A DNA stretch of 64,000 nt from an uncultured virus (IMG/VR IMGVR_UViG_3300006888_000001) (IMGVR_UViG_3300006888_000001), one strand, 5' to 3'; shown: positions 2,170 through 56,570, numbered from the stretch's first letter. Program-made: numbers and translations. The notes: a model not told the origin generated them from the letters alone.

Positions 2170-2672
2170 CGTCGAAAACGTGTCATGCCTGTGGGCGCGA
2201 GTATTCTGAGATCGCCCGCATGTATTCGGAATTTGTGCGATGCCATGGTGCAAATGAGCTTTGGATGCAGCTTATCGACGCTGCTGCCGGAGTTCTGGCG
2301 GCGCGGGAACGCTTGGCTGAAACCTTGTCCTGCACTGACGAGGAGTATGTGGCCGTGCTGGCGCGGATGGAGATCATGCTCGCTATGGCCATCAGAGGAG
2401 TGGAGCGCGACGGCCCCATACGGCCCGGGCAGGATGATGCATGGCTTCATCCTGGCCTGGCCATCGCCCTGCTGATTGTCGAAGCGTCCAAGTGGGCGCG
2501 GCATGTGACCGACATCTTGTCTGTTTGGAGGGCTGCGCTCAATGCGCGCCAGGCCTTGGATCGTTTGATCCTTCCTTGGGAAGGCATGATGGCTCAAGCC
2601 AGGAGGTCTGTCGCGGTGGAATTTCGGCTGTGTCGGACGTGCCAAGTCCAGGCGGGACAACGTGAAGTGTGA
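2166..2672 (+). CDS. Hypothetical phage protein
   Basis: ATGA overlap with previous gene, GGAGG upstream; CHAC and CRTC motifs. Confidence 0.55.
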   Translation: MTSKTCHACGREYSEIARMYSEFVRCHGANELWMQLIDAAAGVLAARERLAETLSCTDEEYVAVLARMEIMLAMAIRGVERDGPIRPGQDDAWLHPGLAIALLIVEASKWARHVTDILSVWRAALNARQALDRLILPWEGMMAQARRSVAVEFRLCRTCQVQAGQREV

Positions 2673-29456: not shown

Positions 29457-30599
29457 ATGGGAATCATGATGCCCATCACCCTGAGCGGCGGCATGCAGCG
29501 CGCTCATCAGGACAATCAGGCGGACCAGCGGTTCGAGCAGGAAACGCAGTATAACGACAAGCGCATGCAGGGCCTGGATCTGGGCATGCGCAAAGACAGG
29601 CTGGAGCTGGACGAGTTCGAGAAGGGTCTGCCCCTGAAGCAGATGCAGCGCGATGCGCAAACCATTGTGGCCCGCGCCAAAGCTGCGATCATGGCGATAG
29701 ATGGGCAACCAATCCAGCTGAGTGATGGTGAATACGAACTGAAGCCGGATCAGGTAGGCCCGTTCCTGGCGCAGACATTTACGGACATGCCCGCCTTTGG
29801 CGCCGTGGAGTGGCGTAACGGCAAGCTGGTGTCCGGTGGCCGGGAAATACCCCTGGACGTAGCGATGGAGCGCCTGGTGAAACTGGCCGATCCTGAAACC
29901 GCCCTGAAGCTCAAGCAGCTGGAATACGCGCCTGCCCAGTACGTGGTTAACGGCAAGGTCGTGACCATGACGCCCAAGCAGGCCGCGTCCGTGCCCGGCG
30001 CCCAAAAGCTGGACAACGTCAAGGGCGGGCTGGATCTGGGCAAGGCCAGTGCTGAGATAGGCAATATCAATGCCCAAGCCGGGGAGCGTCGGGCTCAGGC
30101 GGGCAAGTACGCGGCGGAAACGCAGTGGATCGGTCCCAAGGCACAGGCGGACATAAGCGCCACCAACGCCCTGGCCGGAGAGCGCCGGGCCAGTGCAGGG
30201 GCCAAGGGGCGTGAGGGTACGGACAAGGAGCGCAAGGCCATCCGCGATGAGATCGATTTTGTGACCAAGCAGATCAAGGATTCAGGCAGTAATACATTTG
30301 CCTTCCTGGGCGATGTCGGCAGTCTGGACGGATTGGATTCCGGCCAGAAGCAGAGCGTGGCTGCACGCATGGATCAGATCGCGAGCGACCCCAAGGCCAA
30401 CACTGTAGAGAGACAGGTAGCCGGTCGTTATATTGCCCTGATGCAGGCCGGGGGCTACCTTGACTCCGATGACGAACTGGCTGCGGCCGATTCCGCCAAG
30501 GCGGAATACGCCAGGCTGGTGCAGCAGTTCGGGCGCGAGCAGGCCCGCGCCATTTTGGCTCGCAAGGCCGGGAATACCGGAGATCCGCGCAACAGATAG
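29457..30599 (+). CDS. Putative internal virion/ejection protein
   Basis: AAGGAG RBS; helical A/Q/K-rich repeats; directly before the giant gene. Confidence 0.6.
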   Translation: MGIMMPITLSGGMQRAHQDNQADQRFEQETQYNDKRMQGLDLGMRKDRLELDEFEKGLPLKQMQRDAQTIVARAKAAIMAIDGQPIQLSDGEYELKPDQVGPFLAQTFTDMPAFGAVEWRNGKLVSGGREIPLDVAMERLVKLADPETALKLKQLEYAPAQYVVNGKVVTMTPKQAASVPGAQKLDNVKGGLDLGKASAEIGNINAQAGERRAQAGKYAAETQWIGPKAQADISATNALAGERRASAGAKGREGTDKERKAIRDEIDFVTKQIKDSGSNTFAFLGDVGSLDGLDSGQKQSVAARMDQIASDPKANTVERQVAGRYIALMQAGGYLDSDDELAAADSAKAEYARLVQQFGREQARAILARKAGNTGDPRNR

Positions 30600-30604
30600 G
30601 GGGC

Positions 30605-33600
30605 ATGATGAATTTTCAGATCACCGACGACATCCTTGACGCCTGGGATCAGGAGCTTGGTTTTGCGGAAGAACGGCAGGCGACCCCTGCCGTTTCGCGT
30701 TCCGTACCGCAGACAAAAGGCAGTGTGGAGCAGGCCCTGACCACGGCCGGAAAATTCGAGCTGACGCCCGAAGTGCTGGACCAGTGGGACCGGGAGCTTG
30801 GGTTTGACAAGGAGCCTGTGGATGCCGCCGCCCGCGAAGCCGTGGCGGAGCCTGCGCAGGTTGAAGGCCCGGGCGTGGTGGCGCGAGGCATAGGCAAGGC
30901 CCTGGGCAATGTCGTCGGTCTGGGCGACCTGTTGCCGGACGTGGAAGTGCGCCTTGGGCAAGACCGCCCGGCGGAGCTGGTGCCACGGTCCGACCCGCGC
31001 GGCCCGGAGTGGGAAAAGCAGGGAGCGGAGATTTCTTCCATGCTCGGACGCGGCGTTGCGCACACGGCCAAGGCCGCGTGGGAGAACGGCGATTTCGGCC
31101 AGACGCAGGAAGAATTGATTGATTCCTACAGGGCGGTCCGTGACAAGGTTGGTGCTGATCAGGAATTTCTGAAGTCTCGCGAGGACTGGGCCGAGGGACT
31201 GCCCGAGGGGATATTGTCCCTGCCGTACTCGCTTACGACCATGGGCGCGAGCCTGCTGGGCAGCCTGGCGGGCTCGCCGGGCGGCAAGACGGGTTCCGTG
31301 CTGGGCGGCATGGCCGCTTCCGGCGCCACGGCTTACCGTGCCAGCCGTCACGACTTCATGGGCAATCTGCTCCTGAAGGCAAGCCAGGAACTTGGCCGCG
31401 TGCCCACGCCCGAGGAATGGACAGCCCTGCAGGACAAGTTTGACGGCGCGGCCACCAAGTATGGCGCTTGGGAAGCTATCCCCGAAGCGGTGGGCAATGC
31501 CATGTTCATGGGCGTTGTCGGGCCGGGCTCCAAGTGGGTGGCGGACAAGCTGAGTAAGAAGTTGGGTACCGGCCTGGTCGGGCGCGTGGTCAAGGGGCCG
31601 GTCGGCCGCGTCACGGCCGGAATGGTTGGCACACAGGCCGAAGAACAGTCGATGGAAGGGCTGACGGGATGGGGCCAGGGCGGCGTAGAGGCCGAAGTAG
31701 GTCTGCGCGACAAAGCGCCAACATTGGCCGAAGCCTACAAGGAGTCATTCGCGCCCACGTTCTGGATGACCATGATCACGGGCGGTTTGGGGACCGGCGC
31801 AAGCCACGTGTATGACCGCTGGAAGCAGAGCGGGCGCATCACGGAACCGGAGGCCGATCCGACCCAGACGCAAATCCCCAGTGACCCGGCCCGCGAGCAA
31901 GCCGCCCGCGACACCCTGGACCAGGGCCGGGAAGTGGATCTGCTGGATCTTACCCCGACCGATCCGGCAACGCCGCCGCCTGCAGTGCCTTCCGCGCCTG
32001 CAGCTGCTGCAGCGTCCACAGTCACGGGCCGCGTGGACGAGCTGGCCGATACGTTGGGGCAAATGAACGATGTCCCCGTGGTGGACGAGGCAAACGAGAT
32101 CAGCCCGGCCGTGCTTGGCACGCCTGAGGGTGACGCCGCGTTCCAGGAGTCTCAGCGTGCCGCAGCCGAGGCGGCCGTTCCCGTGGGCGGCAAGTTCGTT
32201 CCGGATGGGGCGCAGCCTGTAGCGCCGGTAGCGGAACAAGCCCCGGATACCCCATTTACGCCCTCGGAGCTGCAGGGCATGATGCCCGCTCCGGAGGAGC
32301 CCATATTGGTGCCGCCCATGGAGCAGGCCGGCGCGGTGGATGCCTTGGATGCGGGCCAGGGGATGCCCTCAAATGATGTCGAAAAACAGGAAAGAGCCCC
32401 CTGGCAGATGACCTTGGGCGAGTACCTGGAAGCCAAGCCAGATGGCCCCAAGTCCCGGATGAACACGCACGAGCACCATGTGCGCGAGGCCCTGGAGCAG
32501 GGCTTGCCGGTGCCGCCCGAGGTGCTGGCGCGGTACAAGGGGCGGTACTGGATGGAGCGCCAGCCAGAGGAGCCCGTGGCAATCGAGCTGGAAGGCGGGT
32601 TTGGTGGCGGTGAAGGGGCTGCGCCTCCCGGACATGTTTCGATTTTCGATCAGGCAGTTTCGTTTGGGGAAGTGGCAGGGCAGCACAAGCAGGAGGGGAT
32701 GGATGACCGAAGACAAGGCGAAACGGGCGGAGCAGACGCTGGACAGGTTGGCCAAGGCTTTCAACAAGACGACGGCGGGCCGGTCGGCGACATTCAAGCG
32801 GGGGCTGTTCAACAGGATGACCAAGGACAAGGGGGAAGCCTTCAGGCAGGATCTTTTGTCGAGGATCAATCTCGAATAGCCGAAGCGCTGGACTATGCCG
32901 ACAACGTGACGCGGCATCTGGTCGGTGCCGGCGCGTTGACCGAGGAAGAAGCCGGGCTCATCGAGCAGGCCGAGCGTGATGAGAGCGAGGCACGCCTGGC
33001 GGATCTGGCATATGAAATGAGCATGCATGCCGAGGTGCGGGATCATGCCCTGGATATCCATGAGCGCGTGATTTCGCGCATCCGTAAATTGGGCGGGATC
33101 AATTACGACCACGCCCGGGAACAGATGGGCCGGGATGGCATTCAGTGGATGCAATCACGGTTTGGGCTGGGTTTCGTGTCCAGTGACGGGGTCATGCTGG
33201 ACGAGCTGGCGGACATGCTGAGCGCCGAAGTTCCGGAGCTGGCAATCGACCGCGAGGTCCAGAACCTCATGGACCTGCTGCGCGACCGCGTGCAGTCCAA
33301 AAAGGCCATCGAGCAGGATTACAGCCGCGCCGTGGACGGCGTGCGCATGGAGATGAGCGAGATTATCGGCCGCCTGCAGGAGCGCCAGGATTACCGCGAG
33401 GGCAAGAATGTCTTTGACCAGCGCGCCGAATCGGACACGGAGCAGGCCAACGCCCCGCCGCACGACCCGGCCCTAGACGAGTCCATGGCCGAGTTCATGG
33501 CCGAGTATGACCGCCAGCTGGCCGAGAAAGAGGCCAAGGCTCAGAAGCCAAAGACTTTGCGCGAGAAGGGCAAAGAGCGGCGAGAGAAGCGGGCGGAGCC

Positions 33601-36600
33601 GTCACCTGAAAAGCAGGCCAGGGCTACGGCCCGCGCGAACCGCAAGCCTGGTCAGACCCTCAAAGACGCCAAGGCCGAGGTGGCCGACCACGCCCAGGGG
33701 CTCGCTGACAGTCTCAAAGCCGCGGCCGATGTGTTTTCGAGGTTCGGCGGGTTGTCCGTGCGCATCGTCAAGGATGGGGAAGAGGTCAATCAAGACCTTT
33801 ACCGGGAGCTGAAACCCCACCTGACCAAGGCCCTGGAACACCTGAAGGCCATGGGTGTGGCCGGCAAGGACCTGGTGCGCGAGTTCGTGTCCAGGGCCAT
33901 GGAAATTTTCGGGGCCAATGCCGCCAAGGCGCGGCCCTATTTCGCCAAATTTGTGCGCGAGGAAATAGCGGGAGGAACTAATGTCGATCAACAGCGTGGC
34001 GGCGAGGATCTGGAACGAGATAGCAGAGCAGGGCAACCTGGCAACGGCGTGGGCCAAGAAAGCCTTCTCGATGAGCGAGGAGGAGCTGAGCCAGGAGGAG
34101 GACAGGGAATACAAGGCGCTGCTGAAACAGGGCGAGGATCACGAAGTGGCCAGCGCCTTCCTGGACGTGCGGCACCTGCTGGCGGAGAGCAAGGCGATAC
34201 GGGCATACGTGAAGAAACATCCGCAACTGAGCGCGGCCCTGCCGGAAGTGAATTCGGTGAACGAGGCGATACTGCTGGCCATGGGGGACACGGAATTGAG
34301 CCTGTCCCAGACCAAGCGGTTGCGCGAGCTGCTGCAAAGCGAGCTGAAGCAGATGAGCGCATAGCCGATCAGAAAAAGGCCCCGACTGCGCAAAAGTCCG
34401 GGGATCTGGCCAATATCGCCGAAACCCTGCCTGTTCTGTACGAGGGGCAGCATAAGGACGTGCAGTTCGCGGAGCTGCGCTTTGAAAAGGGCGCTGGCGT
34501 CATGTTCACCAACGGCACGGGCACGGGCAAGACCGGGTCCGGCCTCGGTATCGTCAAGCGCCTGGTCAATGCGGACAAGACCAACATCCTCATCGCCGTG
34601 CCGGCGGACAAGATCGCCAAGGACTGGATCGACTTTGCCGCCAAATACCTGAACCTGACCGTCACCCAGCTCAAGGACACCAAGGACGCGGGCAAGGGCG
34701 TGGTCATCACCACGCACGCCAACATGGGCATGAACGATGCCCTGGCATCGCGCCAGTGGGATCTTGTTATCATAGACGAGGCCCACAAGCTCATGAGTTC
34801 CGAGAACGGGGATGTGACCGACGCGCTGAACGCGCTGCGGGCCATCACCATGCACAAGGACGGCGCCTACAAATTGGCCCGTATGCGTCATCCGGATCTG
34901 TATGCGGCCCATGAAGAGGCGTCCGTGTCGCACAAGTGGGCCACGGACGAGCAGATAGCCAAATCCAACGCCGCGTACACGGCATGGAGAAATGCCATGC
35001 GCGCGGTGGACGACGAAGTCCGTCAGGCGCGGGAAAGGGGCATTCGCTCGCGGCTCGATGCCACGGACGGCCGGCCCGGCGTGGTGTTTCTTTCGGCCAC
35101 GCCCTTTGCCTACGTGAAGGACGTGGACTATGCCGCCGGCTATCTGTTCGACTACCCGGAGGTGAAGGGCACGGGCTATAACGCGCCCAGCGGGCAGCAA
35201 TCCTTCATGATCCAGCATTTCGGATTCCGGATGCGCACCGGCAAGATGAACAAGCCGGAGGCGGACGTGGATTCCGGGCTGATGGAACGGCAATTCAACT
35301 CCTGGCTGAAGCGGGAAAAGGTGTTGTCTTCGCGCACCCTACAGGTCGATTTCGACTATGACCGGCGGTTTGTGCTGGTGGAATCGGCCATTGGCCGCAA
35401 GATCGATGAGGGACTGGAACTGTTGCGGTCGAAAAGGTTCCGCGAGCTGGGCGACAAGGTCGGTAAGACGTTCGACCATCTGGCCCGGCGCTACCTGCTG
35501 GAAGCCATCAAGGCCAGGGAGGCGATTTCTGTCATTGAGGCGCACCTGGCGCGCGGCCGCAAGGTTGTGATTTTCCACGACTACAAACAGGGTGGAAACT
35601 GGCACAATCCTTTTGACGTGAGTGGCTACACCCTGGACGATGACGAACAGGTGCGCAGCCAGGCCCGCGCATTTCGAGATGAGTATCCGGACCTGGTCAA
35701 TCTGCCCATCAAGGGCCTGAGCAGTCCCATCGACGCCCTGACCAGGGCTTTTCCGAACCTGCTTCTGTTCAACGGCGACGTGCCCGGCAAGCAGCGCAAC
35801 GAGAACGTCAAGCTGTTCCAGGATGACGATTCCGGGCGCAATCTGATTTTGGTCCAGAGCGCGGCCGGTGAGGCGGGCATCAGCCTGCACGATACCACGG
35901 GCACGCATCAGCGCGTGCTCATCAACCTGGGCCTGCCGACCCGGCCGGTCACGGCCATGCAGCAGGAAGGCCGCATTTACCGCGTGGGCCAGGCTTCGCA
36001 CGCCATTTTCCGCTATCTGAACACGGGCACCAGCTGGGAGCGCTGGGCCTTTGCCTCGACCATTGCGGGCCGCGCCAGCACGGCCGAGAATCTGGCCATG
36101 GGCGAAGAGGCCCGGGCATTGCGGGACGGATTTATCCAGGCCTTCGAGGATTCCGACGCCTGGGAGCCCGGGCACGAGTCCGAGGGCCTGGGCGGCAAAG
36201 AGCGCGACGCGGCCGCCATGGCCGCCATTTCCGAGTGGGACCGCGCCCGGACTATGTATTTCGGCCAGCAGAAAAAAACGTCGCGCACCAAGGCGGCCGA
36301 GGGCGCGGACTATTTCGCCACGCCCGAGCCCCTGGGGCTGAAGATGGTGGAATGGGCGGGCATCAGCCCCGGCATGGACGTGCTGGAGCCCAGCGCCGGG
36401 CACGGCGCCATTGCCCGCTGGTTCCCGGATCTGGCGCGCAAGGTGGTCATCGAGCCATCCCACGAGTTGGCTTCGCGCATCGGCCTGGTATCCGACGCCA
36501 AAATCGTCACCGAGCGGTTCGAGGATCATCACGTCGTCAACAAGTATGACGCCATCGTCATGAATCCGCCTTTCGGCACGGCGGGCAAGCTGGCCATGGA

Positions 36601-39600
36601 GCACGTGGCCAAGGCCTTCACGCACCTGCGCGAGGGCGGGCGCATCGTGGCGCTCATCCCCGAAGGCCCGAGCATGGAGAAGCGGTTTGACGCCTGGTAC
36701 GAGTCCGAGGCGGCCAAGCATGCGCATTTGCGCATGAGCCTGTCTCTGCCGGCCGTGACCTTCGAGCGGGCCGGAACGAGCGTGCGCACGCGCGTGGTGG
36801 TCATCGACAAGGCTGAAAAGCCCGTGGGCCACGTGGAGCAGCGCAGTCCGTCCGAGGTGGGTGGCGAAACGATCAAGGACTTTTTCGAGAACCTGGAGCA
36901 CAGGACGGCTCCGGACCGGGTCCGCACCGAGGATGTCGTGCAGCAGGAAGCGGCGGAAAAGGCGTCCTCCGGCGAGGGCGTGTTCTTCGACGCGGCCGAA
37001 ACCAAGCATTCCAAGACCGGCGAGGCCCTGTATGTGGCCAAAAAGGCCGGGCAGGTATCCGATGCTGATTACAAGAAACTGGCGTCCATGGCCAAGGCGC
37101 ATGGCGGCTGGTGGTCGAGCTATAAGGCATCGGGGGCCATTCCGGGCTTTCAGTTCAAGGACCGCAAGGGCCGAGACGTCTTTTTGCAGGAGGCCAACGA
37201 GCTGCTGCAGGGCGTGGGTAAAGTGGCGGAAGGGCCGGCGCAGTATCAGACCAAGCCTGGGTCTGTACGCACTGCGTCCTCCTTGGATGGTGGGGTTCAT
37301 GCGGTTGACGGCGCATCCGAAACTGTTAGGGCCGAGCAAATCGGAGGTGAATATGGAAAAGAAAGAACCCTTGCCGAATCCGAGCCGGAAAACGAGCGTG
37401 AAGGTGACATATCCGGTCGACGAGGAGCGGATTCTGTTTCCGGAGCCGAGCCAGGAAGCGCTGGACGCCTTCCAGGAGTACGTTCGGTCCTGCTTAAAAC
37501 AGTCGAAAAACAATACGTCCCCGCAAAAATAAAGTCCGATCTTGACGCGGCGGTTGCCGTGGCCAGCCTAGCCGACCAGCCCCAGGAAAACATGGTTGCC
37601 CTGGTGCTGGACGCCGGCAACAAGCCCCTGGCAATTCTGCATCACTCCAAGGGGTCTACAGACTCAACTGTCGCCGAGCCCGCAATCCTGTCCGGCTCCG
37701 TGCTCGATGTACCCGGGGCCAGGTACGTCTATCTGGCGCACAATCATCCGGGCGAAAAAGCCTATCTCTCCCCCCAGGACGTAAAGCTTGCCGGTACCTA
37801 CCATGACCTGTTCGAGGGAAGCGGCGTGAAAATGCTGGGCCTGCTCGCGGTCACGTCGAACAGCTTCGCCAACGAACTGGGTGGCAATATCCCCATTCCC
37901 GCGTCCAGCGGGAAGGGTAAACGCGTTCCCGTACAGGTGCGCGTTTTCTTCGGCGTGTATGAGCCTGAGCGCGTTATTCGGCTGAACGATCCGAATGTGC
38001 TTATCAGGCATAGCGAGACAATCACCGGCGGCGCGGACTCCGGCATAGTGCTGCTCAATACCCAGAATGTCGTGGTGGGCTTTGTGCCTATGTCGCCGCA
38101 GCATATGGCTACGCTGCGCGGGAACGGGCTGGGGAATATCTTGCGGGCCATGCACCGGGCCAATGCCAATGGCGTGCTGGGCGTAATCCCCGGCATTTTC
38201 GACACGAAGGCGTGGCACAATGTTGCGGCCTTGGCGCGGGTCGCGGGGTTGCGTGCTCTTGATGTGCTGTACAGGGATCAACACGGAGATCTGCAATCGT
38301 TCCGTGGTAACGGCCAGGACTTTGGGGGCGACGTGGATGTGTTTTTCTCCCGCGCCGAAAACCCGACCGCCAAGGGCATGCCTGCGGCCGACGTGAAAAG
38401 CGTTGTGGACGCTGTGGCCGGGAATTGGGCCAAGGCTCCGGTGGTGAATGTGGTGCAGTCCGTGCGGGATCTGCCCGCGAAGATTCTGGGCGCGGTGCGC
38501 AAGGCCGGAGCCGAGGGCGACGTGCAGGCCGTTTATCATAACGGCACTATCCACATTATCGCCGACCGCATGGCCAGCGCCGATCACGTGCGCCGCACGC
38601 TGCTGCACGAGGGAACCGGGCACCACGGCTTGCGGCTGATCATGCGCAAGGCGGAACTGAACCGCGCCCTGGATCTGGCCTGGGAAAATTCCAAGGTCCG
38701 CGACGCGGCCGGTGAGATCGCCGGGGGCTACGAACTGGATCTCTCCGACCTGGACCAGCGCCGCGAGGCCGTGGAGGAGGTGCTGGCACACTGGGCGGAA
38801 ACGGGCGTTCGCGCCTGGGCGCTGGATAGGTTTGTGGCCGCCGTGCGCCGCGCCCTGCGCCGGGTGCTGCCGGGCCTCAAGATGACCGATGCTGAGGTCC
38901 TGGACCTGATTGTGCGCGCCCGTCGCGCCGTGGTCGAGGGCAAGGGTGCCAGGGCCGTGGCTGGCGGCGGGGCAAAGATGAGCCGGAACCCGGCGGATAT
39001 AGGCATGATCACTGAGGAGATCGCCACCGCCATAGGATGGCAGCCCGGCCCGATCCGGCTGGGGCCTGAAGACATGACTCATATCGCCGAGCGGCACCAA
39101 AGGGAGATCGCGCGGATGGGCTATCCGTCAGTGAGCGACTTCGTGAAGCATGTCGTCGAGAACTTCGACGCGGTGTATCAAGGGTACGGTCGTTCGGTAT
39201 TTTTGGCGGTGCGTGGTGGTAAAACGTGGAAGGCGGCGACGGTCAAGATGGAGTTTGAGCCCAAAGGAAATTTTTGGCGGGTGGTTTCTGCCAGTCCGGT
39301 ACGACCGGACTATTTTGTGAACCTTGAGGGTGTGGAAAGAAAAAAACTGCTTTGGGAAGGGGCGCAGTCCAATCATCGCCTTGCGGCGACCCCTAGCGCG
39401 GTCTCGGGCCAAAGCAGTTATGAAGGGAACATAAGCGCGACCGATGAGGATGACAATACGTACCTGTCCCGGGGGAGAGGCCGAAAAAGTATCAGTATTG
39501 ACGGAATCGAACGGCCGGCCGTAAACAGCGAGGGCCGGCCTATTCATGAAAGTACGGCTGGAATCGTCAATTTTTGGAGGTGGTTCGATGGATTTCAACG

Positions 39601-42600
39601 AGGAAGAGTTGGTGGAAAAGCTGTTGCAGGCGCATACGCAGGAGGAAATCGACGCGGTGTTCGATTTGATTCCGCTGACGGACGAAGAGGAAGAGAAGTT
39701 GGCCTCGATGACCGGGGACGACCCAGAGTATTTTTTCACGGAACGGCAGAAGCCATAGACGCCTTCGACCTGGACCATCCGAACAGAAAGGACAACGGGT
39801 GGCTGGGCCGGGGCGTGTACCTCATAAGCGACTCCCGCATCGCCGAAACGTACGCCAACCTGAAGGGCGGGTTCAAAAACCAGGCGGTGATGCCGCTCTA
39901 TGCCGCTGTTCGAAACCCCTATCACGCAAGCTTAAAGATAAAGCAGAAACTCAGAAGATTCAGCAAGACGTCTATTGAACGCTGGACGCAGGGCCTCAAA
40001 GACCAGGGCTTTGACGGCGTTGTGTTGGATTTTCCCGACGGCACCACGGAGCTGGTGGCATTCTACCCGGAGCAGGTGAAGTCCGTCACAGGGAACGCCG
40101 GAAGCTTTGACTCCGCAAACGACGACATACGTTTCAGCCGGGGCGAGAAAAAAACAAAGCTCCAGCAATCTGCGTTCAAGACCAGGGCAGATGCCGCCGA
40201 AGCGGGGATGCAAACTGGCGCAGACACCGGAGCTTTGAAAGAACCGCTTCGGGAAAGGGCACCGACCAATCATCGCCTTGCGGCGACCCCTAGCGCTGTC
40301 TCGGGCCAAAGCGGTTCTTCGGACGAATCATTAGAAACCTTCGGCGAGGGTGACAATACCCGTTTTTTCCGCGCCGCTACCCAGGTATCCCAGACCGTGG
40401 CCGGCATGGCCACGCCCATGACTCCCGCGCAGATCGCTGCCGAGCTGGAGGCGAACCGCACCTTTGCCAACAAGATCCATGAAGGCCGCGACCAGGTGAG
40501 ACACCAGATCAAGCTCGCGGCCACGGAGATGCAGCGCGCGGTGCAACGCCTGGCAGACTCCAAAAAGTGGAAGTACAACCCCCTCAAAATATTCTCCTCG
40601 GAAAAGGAGCTTAAAGATTCGTCCCGCTCCCGCCTGCTGGACGCGGCCATGCTTGTGCATCGGGAAATGCAGATCAACCCGGACAAGGTTCAGGAGTTCA
40701 AGGACTGGGCGCGCGAGCAGCTTGAAGTCAAAAAGGTCAAGGGCGAGGAGCGGCTGCGCATTCAGGATCAGCTCCGTGTTTTGGAGGCGGCCGAAAACCT
40801 GACGATTGAGCAGAAGCAGTTCGTGGACGACACCATGAACAACGCTTTCGAGACCTTGGGCGGCCAGGCCAAAAATGCGGGCGTGGTCAACACGCTGCTG
40901 GACAACTACGTGCGCCGCCTGTGGAACCGCCCGCAGGATGGCGACAAGGCCGTCTTCTCCGGCGCCGGGCATGCCTTCAAGACCTTCACCACGGCCAGCA
41001 AGGCCCGGAGCTTGGAAACCATATTTGACGGCTGGATAAAGGGTTACGATTTGCAGATCAAGGGCATCACGTCCAGTTGGGCGGCCATTGCCGGGGAGAT
41101 CGGCGAGATCGTGGCGAACAAGCAGTTCATTCAGGAAGGCCGCGCTCAGGGCGTGCTCTCTGCGCGGCGCCAAAAGGGTTATGCCGAGCTGCAGGGCAAG
41201 GGGTTTCAGGTCTGGGTGCGCAAGGCCGGGGTTAAGATCCGCATGCGCGACGTGTACGGCCTCTTGGGCACCGATGGTCAGGGCCGTAAGATGTACGTGT
41301 CCACGCCGAACAGGTACTGGGCCGTCTATACGGATAAGGCTGCGCGCCGGGCGGATACGCTGTTTGACGACGAAGCTCTGGCCCGGGCCTATGCGGAGCA
41401 GCTGCGCGAGCAAGGGGCTCCCGGCGCGTGGGTCGAGTTTCGGCAGGAAGTGGATATTTTCGAGAAGGTGCCCCTGTACGCGCCGGAAAAGGTGGCGGAC
41501 CTCATCAATAGAATGACCCGCGCCATGGACGGGGATAGCCCGTGGAAGGCGCCCTTGCCGCGTGCCATTCTGGCCTTCAACAACGCGGCCAAGGGCTGGA
41601 TTCTGATGACCAGCTTCTTTCACCATCTGGCCGGCGCCCGGTCGTGGGCTTTCGGCGTGAACCAGGGTGCCCTGGAAGCGCTGCGCAAGGGCGACGTGTC
41701 CGATGCCGTGCAGAAAATGGCCAGATCCATCAACCCGGTTTCCGCCCACAAGCGGGGCCTGGAGAAGATCCGGACCAGCAATGCCGTGTTGCGCCAGCTC
41801 ATCAAGCATGGCCTGACCCTTGGCGAGCTGGCAGACTGGTCCGAGGGAGTGGCGTCCGAGCATCGCGGCATCACGGACCGGCTGTTTACGCACCTTTCCG
41901 GACGGCTGCCTGGCGCGGAAAAGGTTGTCGCGGGCGTGCGGGCCGGGCGGTACTTCCGCGAACGGGCGGCCAACGCGCTCTTCAAACGCTATTTTGCCGG
42001 GCTCAAGGCCGAGGCTGCCGTGCTGGAATACGGGCATCAGCTCGATGCCGAGATCCGCGAAGCGAACCGGGAAGGGCGGGTGCCCAACCCGGATCTGGTG
42101 GCCGAGCGGGTGGCGCGCCTGGTCAATGACGACTTCGGCGGCCTGCATCTGGCACGCATGGGCAGGCATCCCGGCGTGCAGGCGGGGCTGCGCCTGTTGC
42201 TGCTGGCGCCGGACTGGACCGAATCGAACTGGCGCACGATCACGGGCATGGTGCCCGGGCTGAACGACGCCGTCGCGCGGATGATGCACGAGGTGCCCGC
42301 GCCTCCCGGCATGGACAAGGTGTATCGCCGTTTCTGGGCGCGGATCATCGTGGTCGGGGCGCTGCACACGCTGGCCCTGCAGGTGCTGGTGTCGGCCCTG
42401 CTTGGTGATGACGACGATCATTGGTATGACCTGTACAAGGACCAGTTCGCGGACTGGGACGCGCTGCGGCGCATGAAATGGACGGGCGTTGACGTGACGC
42501 CGATCTACAAGCGGCTCGGCGTGGACGTGCCCAAGGGTGAGCGCCGGGTCTTTTCCGTGGTCGGGCACTTCGCCGATTTCCTGCGGATCATGGATCCGGA

Positions 42601-43291
42601 GAATCTCATCAAGGGCAAGCTCTCGCCGCTGATGCGGATCGTGGGCGCTTTGGGCACCAAGACCGATTACCGCGAGCGGCCCTTCACGGGCGTGAAGGAG
42701 CTGGTCACCACGGGCCAGACCGTGAAGAGTTCGCGGCATCTGTCCAAAGAACAGTTCTTTGACGCGCTCCCCTCCATCCTGGCGGCGCAGATCCGCGACC
42801 TGCAGCCCATCCAGGTGGGCTATCTGCTCAAATATTTGCAAGGCGAGGAAGAAGGTTTGACGGCGCTTCTTGCCTCTGGAGGCGCGCACATGAGCGCAAC
42901 CCAGAAGCCCGATGTGATCGGCAAGGAGTTTGAGGAGGCGGCGAAGGAAGTGAACAGGGCCCGCCTCCGCTGGCGCGAGCTGGGCGAGCTGCGGGCGGCG
43001 TATCTGGCCCTGTACGAGAAAGATCCGGCCGCGGCCGAGGCTCTGCGCACGGAGCGCGCCGCCGACTTCAAGGAGGCCCGGACCTTCCGCCGCGACAACG
43101 AGAAGCTGCTGCGGCTGTACCCGATGTACGCGCGGGTGCGCGAGGCCCTGGGCGAGCAGGGCCGGAGCAAGCGCCTGCAGGAGGCCTATGTGCTGGACAA
43201 AAACAAACGCTCCACGAGCGTTGACACGCTTGATGAGAATATCGAAAAGCTGAAGCGTACATTTGTCGAGAAATATCGCAAGGCTGGATAG
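30605..43291 (+). CDS. Giant polyvalent protein (4228 aa): SF2 helicase, N6-adenine MTase, JAB/RadC, zincin peptidase, BECR-like nuclease, ADP-ribosyltransferase-like
   Basis: GTGTGKT (~34515), DEAH (~34775), SAT, QEGRIYR (~35965); DYFATP, LEPSAGHG, NPPF (~36565); HNHPGEKAYLSPQD (~37740); HEGTGHHG (~38605); HIAERH...WRVVSA (39080-39295); FHGT...GRGVYL...GFDG...EQVKS (39735-40085). Confidence 0.9.
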   Translation: MMNFQITDDILDAWDQELGFAEERQATPAVSRSVPQTKGSVEQALTTAGKFELTPEVLDQWDRELGFDKEPVDAAAREAVAEPAQVEGPGVVARGIGKALGNVVGLGDLLPDVEVRLGQDRPAELVPRSDPRGPEWEKQGAEISSMLGRGVAHTAKAAWENGDFGQTQEELIDSYRAVRDKVGADQEFLKSREDWAEGLPEGILSLPYSLTTMGASLLGSLAGSPGGKTGSVLGGMAASGATAYRASRHDFMGNLLLKASQELGRVPTPEEWTALQDKFDGAATKYGAWEAIPEAVGNAMFMGVVGPGSKWVADKLSKKLGTGLVGRVVKGPVGRVTAGMVGTQAEEQSMEGLTGWGQGGVEAEVGLRDKAPTLAEAYKESFAPTFWMTMITGGLGTGASHVYDRWKQSGRITEPEADPTQTQIPSDPAREQAARDTLDQGREVDLLDLTPTDPATPPPAVPSAPAAAAASTVTGRVDELADTLGQMNDVPVVDEANEISPAVLGTPEGDAAFQESQRAAAEAAVPVGGKFVPDGAQPVAPVAEQAPDTPFTPSELQGMMPAPEEPILVPPMEQAGAVDALDAGQGMPSNDVEKQERAPWQMTLGEYLEAKPDGPKSRMNTHEHHVREALEQGLPVPPEVLARYKGRYWMERQPEEPVAIELEGGFGGGEGAAPPGHVSIFDQAVSFGEVAGQHKQEGMDDRRQGETGGADAGQVGQGFQQDDGGPVGDIQAGAVQQDDQGQGGSLQAGSFVEDQSRIAEALDYADNVTRHLVGAGALTEEEAGLIEQAERDESEARLADLAYEMSMHAEVRDHALDIHERVISRIRKLGGINYDHAREQMGRDGIQWMQSRFGLGFVSSDGVMLDELADMLSAEVPELAIDREVQNLMDLLRDRVQSKKAIEQDYSRAVDGVRMEMSEIIGRLQERQDYREGKNVFDQRAESDTEQANAPPHDPALDESMAEFMAEYDRQLAEKEAKAQKPKTLREKGKERREKRAEPSPEKQARATARANRKPGQTLKDAKAEVADHAQGLADSLKAAADVFSRFGGLSVRIVKDGEEVNQDLYRELKPHLTKALEHLKAMGVAGKDLVREFVSRAMEIFGANAAKARPYFAKFVREEIAGGTNVDQQRGGEDLERDSRAGQPGNGVGQESLLDERGGAEPGGGQGIQGAAETGRGSRSGQRLPGRAAPAGGEQGDTGIREETSATERGPAGSEFGERGDTAGHGGHGIEPVPDQAVARAAAKRAEADERIADQKKAPTAQKSGDLANIAETLPVLYEGQHKDVQFAELRFEKGAGVMFTNGTGTGKTGSGLGIVKRLVNADKTNILIAVPADKIAKDWIDFAAKYLNLTVTQLKDTKDAGKGVVITTHANMGMNDALASRQWDLVIIDEAHKLMSSENGDVTDALNALRAITMHKDGAYKLARMRHPDLYAAHEEASVSHKWATDEQIAKSNAAYTAWRNAMRAVDDEVRQARERGIRSRLDATDGRPGVVFLSATPFAYVKDVDYAAGYLFDYPEVKGTGYNAPSGQQSFMIQHFGFRMRTGKMNKPEADVDSGLMERQFNSWLKREKVLSSRTLQVDFDYDRRFVLVESAIGRKIDEGLELLRSKRFRELGDKVGKTFDHLARRYLLEAIKAREAISVIEAHLARGRKVVIFHDYKQGGNWHNPFDVSGYTLDDDEQVRSQARAFRDEYPDLVNLPIKGLSSPIDALTRAFPNLLLFNGDVPGKQRNENVKLFQDDDSGRNLILVQSAAGEAGISLHDTTGTHQRVLINLGLPTRPVTAMQQEGRIYRVGQASHAIFRYLNTGTSWERWAFASTIAGRASTAENLAMGEEARALRDGFIQAFEDSDAWEPGHESEGLGGKERDAAAMAAISEWDRARTMYFGQQKKTSRTKAAEGADYFATPEPLGLKMVEWAGISPGMDVLEPSAGHGAIARWFPDLARKVVIEPSHELASRIGLVSDAKIVTERFEDHHVVNKYDAIVMNPPFGTAGKLAMEHVAKAFTHLREGGRIVALIPEGPSMEKRFDAWYESEAAKHAHLRMSLSLPAVTFERAGTSVRTRVVVIDKAEKPVGHVEQRSPSEVGGETIKDFFENLEHRTAPDRVRTEDVVQQEAAEKASSGEGVFFDAAETKHSKTGEALYVAKKAGQVSDADYKKLASMAKAHGGWWSSYKASGAIPGFQFKDRKGRDVFLQEANELLQGVGKVAEGPAQYQTKPGSVRTASSLDGGVHAVDGASETVRAEQIGGEYGKERTLAESEPENEREGDISGRRGADSVSGAEPGSAGRLPGVRSVLLKTVEKQYVPAKIKSDLDAAVAVASLADQPQENMVALVLDAGNKPLAILHHSKGSTDSTVAEPAILSGSVLDVPGARYVYLAHNHPGEKAYLSPQDVKLAGTYHDLFEGSGVKMLGLLAVTSNSFANELGGNIPIPASSGKGKRVPVQVRVFFGVYEPERVIRLNDPNVLIRHSETITGGADSGIVLLNTQNVVVGFVPMSPQHMATLRGNGLGNILRAMHRANANGVLGVIPGIFDTKAWHNVAALARVAGLRALDVLYRDQHGDLQSFRGNGQDFGGDVDVFFSRAENPTAKGMPAADVKSVVDAVAGNWAKAPVVNVVQSVRDLPAKILGAVRKAGAEGDVQAVYHNGTIHIIADRMASADHVRRTLLHEGTGHHGLRLIMRKAELNRALDLAWENSKVRDAAGEIAGGYELDLSDLDQRREAVEEVLAHWAETGVRAWALDRFVAAVRRALRRVLPGLKMTDAEVLDLIVRARRAVVEGKGARAVAGGGAKMSRNPADIGMITEEIATAIGWQPGPIRLGPEDMTHIAERHQREIARMGYPSVSDFVKHVVENFDAVYQGYGRSVFLAVRGGKTWKAATVKMEFEPKGNFWRVVSASPVRPDYFVNLEGVERKKLLWEGAQSNHRLAATPSAVSGQSSYEGNISATDEDDNTYLSRGRGRKSISIDGIERPAVNSEGRPIHESTAGIVNFWRWFDGFQRGRVGGKAVAGAYAGGNRRGVRFDSADGRRGREVGLDDRGRPRVFFHGTAEAIDAFDLDHPNRKDNGWLGRGVYLISDSRIAETYANLKGGFKNQAVMPLYAAVRNPYHASLKIKQKLRRFSKTSIERWTQGLKDQGFDGVVLDFPDGTTELVAFYPEQVKSVTGNAGSFDSANDDIRFSRGEKKTKLQQSAFKTRADAAEAGMQTGADTGALKEPLRERAPTNHRLAATPSAVSGQSGSSDESLETFGEGDNTRFFRAATQVSQTVAGMATPMTPAQIAAELEANRTFANKIHEGRDQVRHQIKLAATEMQRAVQRLADSKKWKYNPLKIFSSEKELKDSSRSRLLDAAMLVHREMQINPDKVQEFKDWAREQLEVKKVKGEERLRIQDQLRVLEAAENLTIEQKQFVDDTMNNAFETLGGQAKNAGVVNTLLDNYVRRLWNRPQDGDKAVFSGAGHAFKTFTTASKARSLETIFDGWIKGYDLQIKGITSSWAAIAGEIGEIVANKQFIQEGRAQGVLSARRQKGYAELQGKGFQVWVRKAGVKIRMRDVYGLLGTDGQGRKMYVSTPNRYWAVYTDKAARRADTLFDDEALARAYAEQLREQGAPGAWVEFRQEVDIFEKVPLYAPEKVADLINRMTRAMDGDSPWKAPLPRAILAFNNAAKGWILMTSFFHHLAGARSWAFGVNQGALEALRKGDVSDAVQKMARSINPVSAHKRGLEKIRTSNAVLRQLIKHGLTLGELADWSEGVASEHRGITDRLFTHLSGRLPGAEKVVAGVRAGRYFRERAANALFKRYFAGLKAEAAVLEYGHQLDAEIREANREGRVPNPDLVAERVARLVNDDFGGLHLARMGRHPGVQAGLRLLLLAPDWTESNWRTITGMVPGLNDAVARMMHEVPAPPGMDKVYRRFWARIIVVGALHTLALQVLVSALLGDDDDHWYDLYKDQFADWDALRRMKWTGVDVTPIYKRLGVDVPKGERRVFSVVGHFADFLRIMDPENLIKGKLSPLMRIVGALGTKTDYRERPFTGVKELVTTGQTVKSSRHLSKEQFFDALPSILAAQIRDLQPIQVGYLLKYLQGEEEGLTALLASGGAHMSATQKPDVIGKEFEEAAKEVNRARLRWRELGELRAAYLALYEKDPAAAEALRTERAADFKEARTFRRDNEKLLRLYPMYARVREALGEQGRSKRLQEAYVLDKNKRSTSVDTLDENIEKLKRTFVEKYRKAG
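32703..32879 (+). CDS. Nested +1-frame small ORF 1 (58 aa, basic) inside the giant gene
   Basis: AGGAGG 6 nt before ATG; MTEDKAKRAEQTLDRLAKAFNK...; the giant frame here is a G/Q/D linker. Confidence 0.6.
   Translation: MTEDKAKRAEQTLDRLAKAFNKTTAGRSATFKRGLFNRMTKDKGEAFRQDLLSRINLE
33981..34364 (+). CDS. Nested +1-frame ORF 2 (127 aa, helical) inside the giant gene, just before the helicase domain
   Basis: GGAGG 5 nt before ATG; G/C third-position bias switches to this frame; protein-like amphipathic sequence. Confidence 0.75.
   Translation: MSINSVAARIWNEIAEQGNLATAWAKKAFSMSEEELSQEEDREYKALLKQGEDHEVASAFLDVRHLLAESKAIRAYVKKHPQLSAALPEVNSVNEAILLAMGDTELSLSQTKRLRELLQSELKQMSA
37353..37532 (+). CDS. Nested +1-frame small ORF 3 (59 aa), just before the JAB/RadC domain
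   Basis: GGAGGTGA SD before ATG; MEKKEPLPNPSRKTSVKVTYPVDEERILFPEPSQEALDAFQEYVRS... Confidence 0.65.
   Translation: MEKKEPLPNPSRKTSVKVTYPVDEERILFPEPSQEALDAFQEYVRSCLKQSKNNTSPQK
39340..39421 (-). ncRNA. Putative antisense structured small RNA, copy 1
   Basis: Minus strand: TTGTCA-17 bp-TATGTT promoter, 11-bp terminal stem AACTGCTTTGG/CCAAAGCAGTT, TCGCC-GCAA-GGCGA GNRA hairpin, ends in a T7 tract. Confidence 0.6.
39428..39456 (-). promoter_or_regulatory. Putative sigma70 antisense promoter
   Basis: -35 TTGTCA (39456..39451), 17-bp spacer, -10 TATGTT (39433..39428). Confidence 0.55.
39588..39758 (+). CDS. Nested +1-frame small ORF 4 (56 aa, very acidic), overlapping the start of the ART domain
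   Basis: GGAGGT SD; MDFNEEELVEKLLQAHTQEEIDAVFDLIPLTDEEEEKLASM...; 18 D/E vs 4 K/R. Confidence 0.7.
   Translation: MDFNEEELVEKLLQAHTQEEIDAVFDLIPLTDEEEEKLASMTGDDPEYFFTERQKP
40236..40321 (-). ncRNA. Putative antisense structured small RNA, copy 2
   Basis: 40242..40316 matches 39345..39419 at 67/75 with a compensatory stem change; TTGTCA retained at 40356..40351. Confidence 0.5.
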
Positions 43292-50055: not shown

Positions 50056-52089
50056 ATGAAAAACAATGTTGATCAGGAGTTTAGCGAATTCGTGCTTTTC
50101 TCTGAGGAAGAGATCAAAGCGCTAACTGCGCGAAGCTTTGAACGTGAGGTCAGAGGCAAGTCAGCTGTTTTTGTCAATTGCCTTGTCCGCAACAAGGACG
50201 TTCAGCTAAAACCCGAGGAACGCACCCGGCAACTTTGGCTGGCCCGACTTATCGACCAGTATAAGTACCCGGCATCGCGCATTCAGGTTGAATACCCCAT
50301 CACTTTTGGACGGGACAGTTCCAAGCGCGCCGATATCGTCGTCTTCGACGCCGACCGCCCGACAGTTCCTTACATCATCATTGAGGTGAAGCAGAGTAAG
50401 TTGCGAGATGGCAAGGAGCAACTGCGCTCCTACACACACGCGACGGGTGCGCCTCTGGCGGTGTGGAGCAACGGCATTCTCGACGAGGTCTGGCATCGCA
50501 AAAATCCGAACTACTTTGTCCCCATTCACCACCTGCCCCGAGCGAATCAGACGATCGAGGATATCGTCGATCAGCCGTGGACCATTCAGACCCTGATAGA
50601 CAAGGAGAATGAGCGGGAATGCGAGGGCTCAAAGGCACGTTCCCTGCGCGACTTGATCGAGGACATGGAAAACGAGGTTCTGGCCAACGCTGGTGTCGAT
50701 GTCTTTGAGGAAGTATTCAAACTGATCTTTACCAAGCTCTATGACGAGATGGCCACACATCGCGGCCAATATCCGTGCTTGCGTTTTCGAAACACCAACA
50801 CCGCCGCGCAACTAAAACGCGCCATTCAGGACTTGTTCGACGAAGCAAAGAATAAATGGCCCGGCGTATTCCTTGAAACCGAGCGCATACGCCTGTCGCC
50901 CGATCATCTGCAAGTCTGCGTCGGGTCTTTGGAAGAATGGAAGCTGTTCAACTCCAACCTCGACGTTATCGACGACGCTTTCGAATATCTCGTCAACAAG
51001 TCATCGAAGGGTGAAAAAGGCCAGTACTTTACCCCTCGCTGGGTGATCGACATGTGCGTAAAAATGCTCAATCCACAAGAGCATGAAACGGTGATAGACA
51101 CTGCGTGCGGTTCTGCGGGCTTTACGGTGCACTCTATGTTCCACGTCTGGCGAAAAATCATCGCGGACTTGGGACTACAGGAAAGCCACCTATTCACAAT
51201 GGAGCAGAAGCCACCACGTTGCGAAGACTATGTGCGCGACAAGGTGTTCGCCATCGACTTCGATGAAAAATCCGTCCGCGTCTCCCGCTGCCTCAACCTC
51301 ATCGCGGGCGACGGTGAAACCAACGTGCTTCATCTCAACACCCTCGACTGGACCAAGTGGGACGAGACGGTAAAGCAGGATGAATGGGGCGAGACCTACA
51401 GCGCCGGATGGCAGCGACTTCGCAGGCTCAGGGTTAGCACCAAACAGGCCGACTACCGGCAATTCAAGTTCGACGTGGTGATGGCCAACCCGCCTTTCGC
51501 GGGTGATATCAAACAATCCGAAATGCTGTCATCCTATGATCTGGCCCATAAGAAGGACGGCAAGCTGGAACGCGCCGTAGGTCGTGATCTACTGTTCATC
51601 GAACGCAATCTGGACTTCCTAAAACCTGGCGGCCGTATGGCTGTGGTGCTTCCACAGGGGCGATTCAACAACTCGTCCGACCGACGGGTGCGCGAGTTTA
51701 TCATGGAGCGTTGCCGCATCCTGGCCGTGGTGGGTTTGCACCCTAATAGCTTCAAACCGCACACCGGGACTAAGACAAGCGTGCTGTTTGTGCAGAAGTG
51801 GAACGACGATCCCTCTGCCGGACCACTCTGCCCTAAGGTGGGCGACTATAACATCTTCTTCGCCACGCAGCAGGTGGAAAGCATCAACAATTCGGGCGAG
51901 AAGGTCTATGTGCGCCGCGAGGACGGCGGCATGCTAATGCGTGATACGCATGGGCACTTCATCGTCGCTCATGACCTCTACAATCACGAGGGTCTGACAG
52001 GGGATGGCATAGCCGAAGCCTTTCAGGAGTTCGCCGCACAGGAGCAATTCAGTTTTTTTCGCTTCGCCCCTTCGACAGTGACCGCTTAG
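50056..52089 (+). CDS. Fused restriction endonuclease (HsdR N-terminal type) and N6-adenine methyltransferase (type IIB/IIG-like)
   Basis: RADIVV...IEVK...QLRSY nuclease motif; GQYFTPR, DTACGSAGF, NPPF. Confidence 0.88.
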   Translation: MKNNVDQEFSEFVLFSEEEIKALTARSFEREVRGKSAVFVNCLVRNKDVQLKPEERTRQLWLARLIDQYKYPASRIQVEYPITFGRDSSKRADIVVFDADRPTVPYIIIEVKQSKLRDGKEQLRSYTHATGAPLAVWSNGILDEVWHRKNPNYFVPIHHLPRANQTIEDIVDQPWTIQTLIDKENERECEGSKARSLRDLIEDMENEVLANAGVDVFEEVFKLIFTKLYDEMATHRGQYPCLRFRNTNTAAQLKRAIQDLFDEAKNKWPGVFLETERIRLSPDHLQVCVGSLEEWKLFNSNLDVIDDAFEYLVNKSSKGEKGQYFTPRWVIDMCVKMLNPQEHETVIDTACGSAGFTVHSMFHVWRKIIADLGLQESHLFTMEQKPPRCEDYVRDKVFAIDFDEKSVRVSRCLNLIAGDGETNVLHLNTLDWTKWDETVKQDEWGETYSAGWQRLRRLRVSTKQADYRQFKFDVVMANPPFAGDIKQSEMLSSYDLAHKKDGKLERAVGRDLLFIERNLDFLKPGGRMAVVLPQGRFNNSSDRRVREFIMERCRILAVVGLHPNSFKPHTGTKTSVLFVQKWNDDPSAGPLCPKVGDYNIFFATQQVESINNSGEKVYVRREDGGMLMRDTHGHFIVAHDLYNHEGLTGDGIAEAFQEFAAQEQFSFFRFAPSTVTA

Positions 52090-56108: not shown

Positions 56109-56570
56109 ATGAAGGTGCTTGGAATTCGAACTGCGCCGAAGCAGTTGAGATTTGCATTGTTGGAAATGGACGGAACTGACATTAAATTCCTTAACCAAGA
56201 CGCTGAAAATCTGATCAAGGTGCCCGCTAGTGTGACAGAGGTCGAAGACATTGTTCATTGGCAGAAATCGGAGATTGACAGAATACTCAGGCAAAATCAG
56301 GACATCGATTTGGTTGCGATTAAGACGAGCGAATATGCTGGAAATGAAACCAAATTAACTCGCTTGGCTTCGTATCTTGACGCCGCTGTTTTGCTGGCCG
56401 CTAAAGATGCCAACATCACAGTCTGCACCCGTGTATACAGCCAAATCGGTACCAAAAGAGCAAACGTCAAGGAACACGCTGAGTCTAGAGTTGGTGCTAC
56501 GGAAAAGTATTGGAACGAACAAATTGCCGACGCGATTATGGTGGCTTGGGCTGTCAGGGAAAAAGCCTAG
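56109..56570 (+). CDS. RNase H/RuvC-like fold protein (first catalytic Asp replaced)
   Basis: MKVLGIR...FALLE, IDLVAIK, IADAIMVAW pattern. Confidence 0.55.
   Translation: MKVLGIRTAPKQLRFALLEMDGTDIKFLNQDAENLIKVPASVTEVEDIVHWQKSEIDRILRQNQDIDLVAIKTSEYAGNETKLTRLASYLDAAVLLAAKDANITVCTRVYSQIGTKRANVKEHAESRVGATEKYWNEQIADAIMVAWAVREKA

Follow-up and report, generated by a model that had tools for sequence, protein, structure and literature searches.

The giant gene at 30605..43291 of IMGVR_UViG_3300006888_000001, an uncultured virus of which a stretch of 64,000 nucleotides (nt; "the window" throughout) was analysed, encodes a polyvalent virion protein and raises an unusual question: are four short open reading frames (ORF1 to ORF4), all lying wholly inside it on the same strand with an offset of +1 to its frame, genes in their own right, and if so, what would their products do? 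A first-pass annotation of the window had taken them for inhibitors or antitoxins overprinted in the linkers of the giant protein. Our best overall explanation is that the four probably are genuine same-strand overlapping genes in these linkers and that ORF2 acts as a cis-encoded regulator of the helicase encoded directly after it. The case for nested genes rests on the codon signature, the start signals and conservation, whilst the regulatory role of ORF2 draws on its distribution and on a predicted complex.

All four ORFs are present as proposed (Table 1), and GGAGG is indeed found before each ATG at a spacing of 5, 5, 6 or 7 nt across the four, with ORF3 exhibiting the full Shine-Dalgarno (SD) sequence GGAGGTGA. 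The giant gene contains 92 ATGs in the +1 frame, six of which follow a 5-nt SD core at a spacing of 4–10 nt: four of these six are the starts of the nested ORFs (all GGAGG), and the remaining two lead ORFs of 23 and 21 codons. The composition of the codon positions also changes over the four spans. Overall, the giant frame has a codon-position GC of 0.68/0.45/0.75; over the spans, third-position GC (GC3) drops to 0.26–0.50 and first-position GC climbs to 0.74–0.88, and the gene's normal coding pattern is therefore found when these spans are read in +1. Such a shift had been reported for ORF2, and it extends to the other three spans. Using a codon model trained on the giant gene itself and scanned for frame preference, the +1 frame is favoured over frame 0 solely at 32600–32884, 33965–34399, 37250–37549 and 39500–39769, the +2 frame is never favoured, and the median score elsewhere in the giant gene is -37. 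The atypical linker codons pointed out in the first-pass annotation are likewise enriched in the spans: GGA accounts for 32/64 glycine codons within them vs 29/352 outside, with corresponding values of 16/34 vs 7/289 for CGA and 17/23 vs 23/159 for CAA. The siting of ORF2, ORF3 and ORF4 ahead of enzymatic domains also holds, as they end at giant residues 1254, 2310 and 3052 and the helicase, JAB and ART domains start at residues 1282, 2318 and 3035, respectively.

Table 1. Features of the giant gene, with positions in the window and in the giant protein (aa, amino acids; pI, isoelectric point).
Feature	Window position	Strand	Giant residues	Size	Details
Giant polyvalent virion-protein gene	30605..43291	+		4228 codons/4228 aa	
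ORF1 + SD	32692..32879	+	700-759	58 aa	GGAGG 32692-32696, ATG 32703, stop 32877-32879; pI 10.4 (basic)
ORF2 + SD	33970..34364	+	1126-1254	127 aa	GGGAGG 33970-33975, ATG 33981, stop 34362-34364; all-alpha
DarB-like SF2 helicase + methyltransferase module	34448..36739	+	about 1282-2045		Pfam, alignment motifs, complex prediction
SNF2/ResIII helicase domain			1282-1830		Pfam
Methyltransferase domain			about 1920-2045		Pfam
ORF3 + SD	37343..37532	+	2250-2310	59 aa	GGAGGTGA 37343-37350, ATG 37353
RadC/JAB domain	37556-37861		2318-2419		Pfam, 7.9e-10
Direct repeats	39341-39419 and 40238-40316 (39341..40316)	+		79 nt	89% identical, spacing 897 nt (in frame)
ORF4 + SD	39576..39758	+	2995-3052	56 aa	GGAGG 39576-39580, ATG 39588
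ART-PolyVal domain	39707-40108		3035-3168		Pfam, 3.9e-24

The simplest alternative is that the +1 ORFs are untranslated by-products of purine-rich, T-poor linker DNA, with GGAGG arising from Gly-Gly/Gly-Glu codons. In order to gauge the probability of a stop-free frame, synonymous codons were resampled whilst the amino acids of either frame were held fixed. Given the linker amino acids, the +1 frame is stop-free with a probability of 0.85, 0.74, 0.145 and 0.77 for ORF1 to ORF4: the amino-acid make-up of the linkers leaves it open so often that an open +1 frame alone is no evidence for a gene. Chance is also favoured by the abundance of +1 ORFs of at least 40 aa in general, with 706 in 29 giant genes, and by ORF3, in which synonymous and non-synonymous changes in its own frame stand at 3:11. 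The reverse calculation gives a different picture, since the giant frame is stop-free with a probability of 0.020, 0.007, 0.141 and 0.049 when the nested proteins are given (product 9e-7), which indicates that read-through of the giant frame is maintained by selection on codon choice. Chance furthermore leaves unexplained a GC3 of 0.26–0.50 in a gene with a GC3 of 0.75, the four out of six strong-SD +1 ATGs and the suppressed third-position change described below; for ORF2, it would also have to account for protein conservation down to 29–33% identity, a fixed start and stop, a confident fold and stand-alone homologues. We consider a chance origin very improbable for the set as a whole and untenable for ORF2. 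Selection on both frames is supported for ORF2, ORF1 and ORF4 and weakly for ORF3, and the proposal that the nested ORFs are genes thus stands to differing degrees: the evidence settles the matter for ORF2, is good for both ORF1 and ORF4 and is less strong for ORF3. Judging from the sequence, ORF2 is at the least almost certainly a real gene, ORF1 is likely to be one and ORF4 only slightly less so, while for ORF3 the balance tips marginally towards a gene.

ORF2 belongs to a widespread folded family that occupies one fixed slot, between a small N-terminal helical domain and the DarB-like helicase/methyltransferase. In a set of 5.8 billion proteins, we found 25 homologues besides the copy in the window, 24 of 122–133 aa and one of 208 aa, with identities reaching down to 33%; the family has a common start (MSxxSVAAxIWNEIA) and a common end, and the 208-aa member (P0017) carries an additional 80 residues at its C-terminus. 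A pattern scan of viral contigs yielded 21 viral loci with GC contents of 0.42–0.69, and in all 21 the homologue is found in the +1 frame of a read-through giant frame, which is open for 1317–4121 codons within the locus. The ATG has been kept at the homologous position in every one of these loci, often with a +1 stop a few codons upstream, and the host-frame residues spanning it vary. A frameshift product, in which the N-terminus of the giant protein would be fused to ORF2, was also considered and is unlikely, because the window has a +1 stop 4 codons ahead of the ATG and several relatives have one at a distance of no more than 10 codons, and because the ATG itself is conserved.

Selection was analysed with 18 ORF2 sequences, after removal of three near-duplicates (L004, L008, L019) and one truncated locus (L022). 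Across nested codon positions 1/2/3, the nucleotides diverge by 0.44/0.37/0.53, and thus the wobble position of the host frame is the most constrained. Translated from identical aligned nucleotides, the nested frame has an amino-acid identity of 0.447 vs 0.286 for the host frame, with the nested value higher for 153/153 pairs; a separate host-frame alignment again gave 0.286 for the linker vs 0.50–0.60 in the helicase and methyltransferase domains. The predicted structures differ in the same manner. The AlphaFold2 model of ORF2 is a seven-helix globule with a predicted local distance difference test (pLDDT) score of 89.4 and a predicted template modelling score of 0.82, whilst the host-frame translation of this DNA, modelled within a 300-residue piece, has pLDDT <50 and no secondary structure over residues 66–172: this covers most of the overlap with ORF2 (about residues 68–195), and the helices flanking the disordered part are confident (pLDDT 81–93).

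The family extends to cultured phages, with tblastn matches in Serratia phage Parlo, Klebsiella phage vB_KpnP_ZX1, Ruegeria phage 45A6 and two Vibrio phages. In 3/3 of the cultured-phage records that were inspected, the nested ORF2 homologue is intact, in the +1 frame and without annotation, in keeping with the prediction that standard gene callers would miss such genes. Genome contigs provided 11 further loci, 7 of which carry a nested ORF2 (two of the 7 look identical to viral loci). Three others, on contigs of bacterial metagenome-assembled genomes and beside housekeeping genes, contain free-standing members of the family (L041 414–815, L044 6004–6558, L045 5932–6372), which have neither a giant gene nor a helicase within 6 kb, and L042 holds a decayed ORF2 remnant; the equivalent host frame has stops in all three stand-alone homologues and in the remnant. 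These homologues bear on the direction of the overlap. The first-pass annotation regarded the small genes as overprinted in pre-existing linkers, which probably inverts the order: the nested frame has genome-typical codons, the linker is disordered and made of rare codons, and free-standing ORF2 homologues exist, all of which suggests a resident small gene of which the linker is a secondary reading. The small genes would then be the primary reading of these stretches, with the G/E/R/Q linker arising where the giant frame reads through them. Among the relatives recovered, none has ORF2 as a gene of its own directly upstream of a helicase gene that is likewise separate.

A native codon pattern in the nested frame, together with a host frame that looks secondary, would also be expected if the ORFs were selfish or hitch-hiking cassettes, inserted out of frame and read through as linker, with products that serve their own spread or an unrelated role. 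There is a published precedent in the ShiLan domain, an HNH endonuclease encoded out of frame within a DNA methylase gene of actinophages that is read through by its host frame (Arsenault, Gosselin and Gogarten 2025, PMC11855218). The free-standing ORF2 homologues fit such an origin, as does ORF4, which forms an insertion of about 45 aa relative to the ART-PolyVal modules of L024 and L025 (in which ORF4 is absent) and is surrounded, together with its ART module, by 79-nt direct repeats. The same can be said for the distant relative L001 (GC 0.46), where an 89-aa +1 ORF at 8350–8616 directly follows the conserved YFAKFVREE motif, which marks the ORF2 slot, and is itself followed by a methylase without helicase; tested as a relative of ORF2, this ORF proved not to be detectably related (hhalign probability 0.2%). 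Against cassettes stands the result of the family searches, which turned up neither a nuclease or transposase nor any other mobility domain in the four ORFs; for a homing endonuclease in particular, there was no family match for any of the four and no nuclease-like fold match for the ORF2 model. ORF2 also keeps its one slot across relatives in which the helicase has diverged to 36–46% identity, is missing jointly with the helicase in the closest relative and is predicted to bind the catalytic cleft of the helicase. On balance, we consider cassettes unlikely.

In its distribution, ORF2 goes together with the helicase. Helicase positions were scanned in 17 of the 21 viral loci (leaving out L004, L008, L019 and L022), and in 16/17 the ResIII helicase begins 155–180 residues past the ORF2 start. 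The exception is L007 (near-duplicate L008), in which the helicase has been lost and the ORF2 homologue has a divergent C-terminus. Every helicase-bearing relative recovered contains ORF2, although these relatives were retrieved with ORF2 as the query and hence this count cannot exclude helicases lacking ORF2. The closest relative, G002 (locus L032), is 88% identical at the nucleotide level, and its giant gene is without the block corresponding to 33474–37300 of the window: the small upstream domain, ORF2 and the helicase/methylase are missing together, and neither ORF2 nor the helicase was found elsewhere in the G002 record (59.9 kb, estimated to be 76% complete). The right-hand junction of the missing block lies 52 nt before the ATG of ORF3. 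Given this missing block and its junction near ORF3, module swaps seem to respect units that consist of a nested ORF and the domain that follows it.

Prediction of a complex between ORF2 and the helicase–methylase piece, one of the checks proposed at the outset, supported the pairing: it gave a score of 0.67 (runs 0.67, 0.54 and 0.72), as opposed to 0.00 for the best of 3 controls. A score of 0.67 is reached by 116/157 solved complexes and 2/215 mismatched pairs, counts that are approximate here because of the self-made alignments. The runs have at least 86% of their contacts in common, the partner pLDDT is at least 84, and memory of a solved complex is not the source of this result, as ORF2 is without a relative among PDB structures. 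On the helicase piece, the confident interface comprises residues 177–185, 267–273, 372–378, 632–639 and 656–670, and its invariant columns in the alignment (A3) are TNGTGTGKT (Walker A), DE of DEAH, SAT, GxSxHD and QxEGRxxR, motifs that form the walls of the ATP cleft, which is situated between the two RecA-like lobes; ORF2 in turn is predicted to make contact through, among others, its conserved N-terminus, with the SVAA segment placed at the Walker A/SAT motifs, and its invariant L87-P88-E89 loop. According to this model, the ORF2 protein would sit between the RecA-like lobes of the helicase and touch Walker A, DEAH, SAT and motif VI.

Co-occurrence and predicted binding apply equally if ORF2 were a positive subunit or packaging adaptor, co-packaged with the helicase module and needed for its folding, capsid targeting or activity. 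The position of the giant gene among genes for internal virion proteins agrees with such a role, and in the case of P1 DarB, incorporation into the capsid requires accessory proteins. The predicted contacts are less easily reconciled with it, since they cover the residues of Walker A, DEAH, SAT and motif VI that close around ATP: blocking fits this predicted interface better than activating, and we rate a positive role for ORF2 as somewhat more unlikely still than cassettes.

We return to ORF2 as a putative cis-encoded regulator of the helicase motor, with an inferred inhibitor or antitoxin function. Each nested ORF would be translated from its own SD and ATG on the mRNA of the giant gene, and each would sit in a disordered linker of the virion-packaged polyvalent protein. 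ORF2 would most likely be a wedge-type inhibitor ("safety catch") or a holding chaperone, which, made beside the nascent helicase in the producing cell, could hold off its ATPase up to the packaging or ejection of the giant protein. ORF1, ORF3 and ORF4 may be younger, lineage-restricted small proteins of the same kind; going by position, ORF3 could partner the following JAB domain and ORF4 the following ART domain.

These three ORFs are confined to the lineage of the window and G002 as far as known, and G002 provides the comparison: start, stop, length and SD are all retained there. They differ from G002 at 12/177 (ORF1), 14/180 (ORF3) and 6/171 (ORF4) nt, with values of 0.109–0.139 for the long flanks. 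Changes at third positions of the giant frame amount to 9/176 in the three ORFs combined vs 405/1832 in the flanks (Fisher p=2.4e-9); taken individually, these are 2/59 for ORF1 (p=1.4e-4), 6/60 for ORF3 (p=0.025) and 1/57 for ORF4 (p=2.3e-5). A frame-specific substitution check gave a divided result, with synonymous and non-synonymous changes in ORF1 at 8:4 in +1 vs 2:10 in the giant frame, which shows purifying selection on ORF1 in its own frame; ORF3, with the ratio given above, did not pass it.

ORF1 has a single homologue of 59 aa (45% identity, E 2.8e-7) with the same NLE end. A second match (P0030), to a 661-aa repeat protein, was judged spurious, and matches in L048–L050, a similarity of 26 residues in the main frame of a low-GC protein, were judged uninformative. 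ORF4 is very acidic (pI 4.05, charge -14) and reaches from the conserved FWRWFDG motif, the codons of which provide both its SD and its ATG, into the VFFHGT that opens ART-PolyVal. An apparent homology of ORF4 to ORF2 (E 0.046 without composition correction) was gone once corrected. The 79-nt repeats that bracket ORF4 and the ART module each encode NHRLAATPSAVSGQS and cross-match in G002; as they are direct and in frame, they suggest that the ORF4 + ART cassette may come or go by recombination without breaking the frame. Searches for ORF3 and ORF4 returned only themselves from the 5.8-billion protein set and no relatives from metagenome contigs, blanks that carry little weight because nested ORFs are rarely called as genes, and tblastn of ORF1, ORF3 and ORF4 against 22 viral loci (L001–L022, being the 21 with ORF2 and L001) gave no matches.

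Several observations weigh against the explanation that we prefer. The openness of the +1 frame is expected by chance at ORF1, ORF2 and ORF4 (0.74–0.85), and the mere existence of these ORFs proves nothing. For ORF3, purifying selection is not seen in the nested frame and the C-terminus is a different one in G002, and this ORF is the weakest of the four; ORF3 and ORF4 are also without relatives beyond this one 88%-identical phage. In the case of ORF2, binding is a matter of model confidence from unpaired, self-made alignments, and it is mute on inhibition versus activation. In L041, L044, L045 and L007/L008, the ORF2 homologue has no helicase in its vicinity, so that the partnership is not obligatory. 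Finally, nothing in the fold and family libraries searched points to a known biochemical role for ORF2: there was no result above noise for any of the four nested proteins in Pfam, PHROGs, PADLOC or NCBIfam, the ORF2 model reached a best E of 1.3 against the PDB by Foldseek, a best Z of 4.4 by VIA-align wide and a best E of 1.6 against BFVD, and there were 0 matches to the PDB by sequence profile and no usable match in the ESM Atlas.

The suggestion that other polyvalent genes be scanned for +1 ORFs proved productive. In 29 giant genes (34 loci minus five near-duplicates), ATG-initiated ORFs of at least 40 codons were scored with the codon model, and 125/706 +1 ORFs outscored the host frame as opposed to 0/38 +2 ORFs: this simple scan cleanly separated nested genes. 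The 125 ORFs correspond to 44 distinct candidates, of which 35 exhibit an SD core. Two nested +1 families recur (L005 3208–3339 / L006 2539–2748, E 9e-14; L034 5467–5619 / L046 5131–5301, E 8e-8), and a further nested +1 pair was found in L009 4684–4914 / L021 5152–5427 (E 7e-4); all of these lie upstream of the ORF2 slot in the giant genes of the relatives. A broader reading would have a hidden layer of partner genes, in which each disordered linker is a small gene whose product binds the active site of the next enzymatic domain. The product would be made on the same mRNA as that domain emerges, keeping it inactive or unfolded-competent, and only the injected, partner-free enzyme would be active in the next host; ORF2 and the helicase would be the first case, with ORF3 + JAB, ORF4 + ART and the nested families of the relatives as others. 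We regard this extension as possible, albeit doubtful.

Same-strand embedded genes are known from other phages: Rz1 is found in the +1 frame of lambda Rz, and phiX174 has B in A and E in D. The present ORFs share with these systems the full containment of a small gene, equipped with start signals of its own, in a larger gene of the same strand, with both frames open. Unlike in them, the host is here a multi-domain virion enzyme of more than 4000 codons with four nested genes in one host, the nested genes lie in disordered linkers, it is the nested and not the host frame that has the normal codon pattern, and the predicted binding partner of ORF2 is the domain that follows it in the host frame. 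P1 DarB is a virion-packaged helicase and N6-methylase in which accessory small proteins are involved, needed for capsid incorporation and encoded by separate genes. The module here likewise unites a helicase and an N6-methylase, and the homologue of this part in Serratia phage Parlo is annotated "DarB-like antirestriction protein"; in contrast to the separate accessory genes of P1, the gene of the predicted small partner is nested. A small protein that is encoded beside an enzyme and predicted to bind its active-site region is also reminiscent of type II toxin–antitoxin and polymorphic-toxin immunity pairs, although here the small gene lies inside the enzyme's own gene and not beside it, and family searches with the four nested proteins gave no match to a known antitoxin or immunity family. 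The first-pass annotation knew of no description of such an arrangement. This does not hold for nesting as such, given Rz1 in Rz and the ShiLan endonuclease; for polyvalent or DarB-like proteins, the literature listings searched yielded no description of nested genes. What is new here is a conserved, fold-orphan family nested in the linker of the gene that encodes its own predicted target.

With ShiLan (PMC11855218), the ORFs share an out-of-frame position inside a phage enzyme gene, a stop-free host frame and concealment from standard annotation, and the host-frame stretch over ShiLan is predicted to form a loop. They differ from it in that no endonuclease or mobility domain was found in the nested genes and in that ORF2, as opposed to the sporadic ShiLan, is a fixed component that diverges along with its host module. 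Polyvalent proteins of phages and conjugative elements have been described by Iyer, Burroughs, Anand, de Souza and Aravind (2017, PMC5512222); a term search of its full text gave no instance of "overlapping", "linker" or "immunity protein" and two of "nested", both in the sense of a hairpin, and the passages so found do not describe nested genes. The giant gene encodes a polyvalent protein in the sense of that work, since it combines several conflict-related enzymatic domains in one polypeptide with phage structural genes as neighbours: according to Pfam, these are a SNF2/ResIII helicase with an N6-methyltransferase (DarB-like), RadC/JAB and ART-PolyVal. With these domains in one polypeptide beside virion genes, it is typical of the class.

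If our explanation is correct, phage polyvalent/DarB-like genes would encode a protein together with its own regulators, and these would escape annotation, since nested calls are suppressed by gene callers. Giant phage genes would thus be able to conceal small proteins that partner their own products. It would also provide a route to "linkers", in which a resident small gene comes to be read through by a fused gene in a different frame, and searches for overlapping genes should then aim at the disordered spacers of giant phage genes. The ORF2 family, for which Pfam, PHROG, NCBIfam and PADLOC gave no match and the structure libraries searched no neighbour, occurs in cultured Serratia, Klebsiella, Vibrio and Ruegeria phages, which offers a handle on the silencing or assembly of a packaged antirestriction motor.

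As to its surroundings, the window belongs to a podovirus-like phage with genes for terminase, a portal-like protein, major head protein, tail fibre and internal virion protein, and the giant gene is placed downstream of those for terminase, portal-like, major head and internal virion proteins. Megablast of the giant gene against phages and plasmids gave no match, nor did tblastn of the JAB stretch against phages, the nearest record (G001) does not contain the giant gene, and no sigma-70-like sites were found on the + strand within it. The giant gene starts with ATGATG, 5 nt after the stop of the upstream ORF (window 30597–30610), and is preceded by just a GGGGG run 1–4 nt away, so that its initiation signal looks weaker than the nested GGAGG sites. 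The giant protein contains 0 cysteines in its 4228 residues, whilst nested ORF3 has one. Further downstream, at 50056–52086 and 56510–57634 of the window, there are a second DarB-like/DNA-methyltransferase gene (PHROG matches) and a serine-threonine kinase gene.

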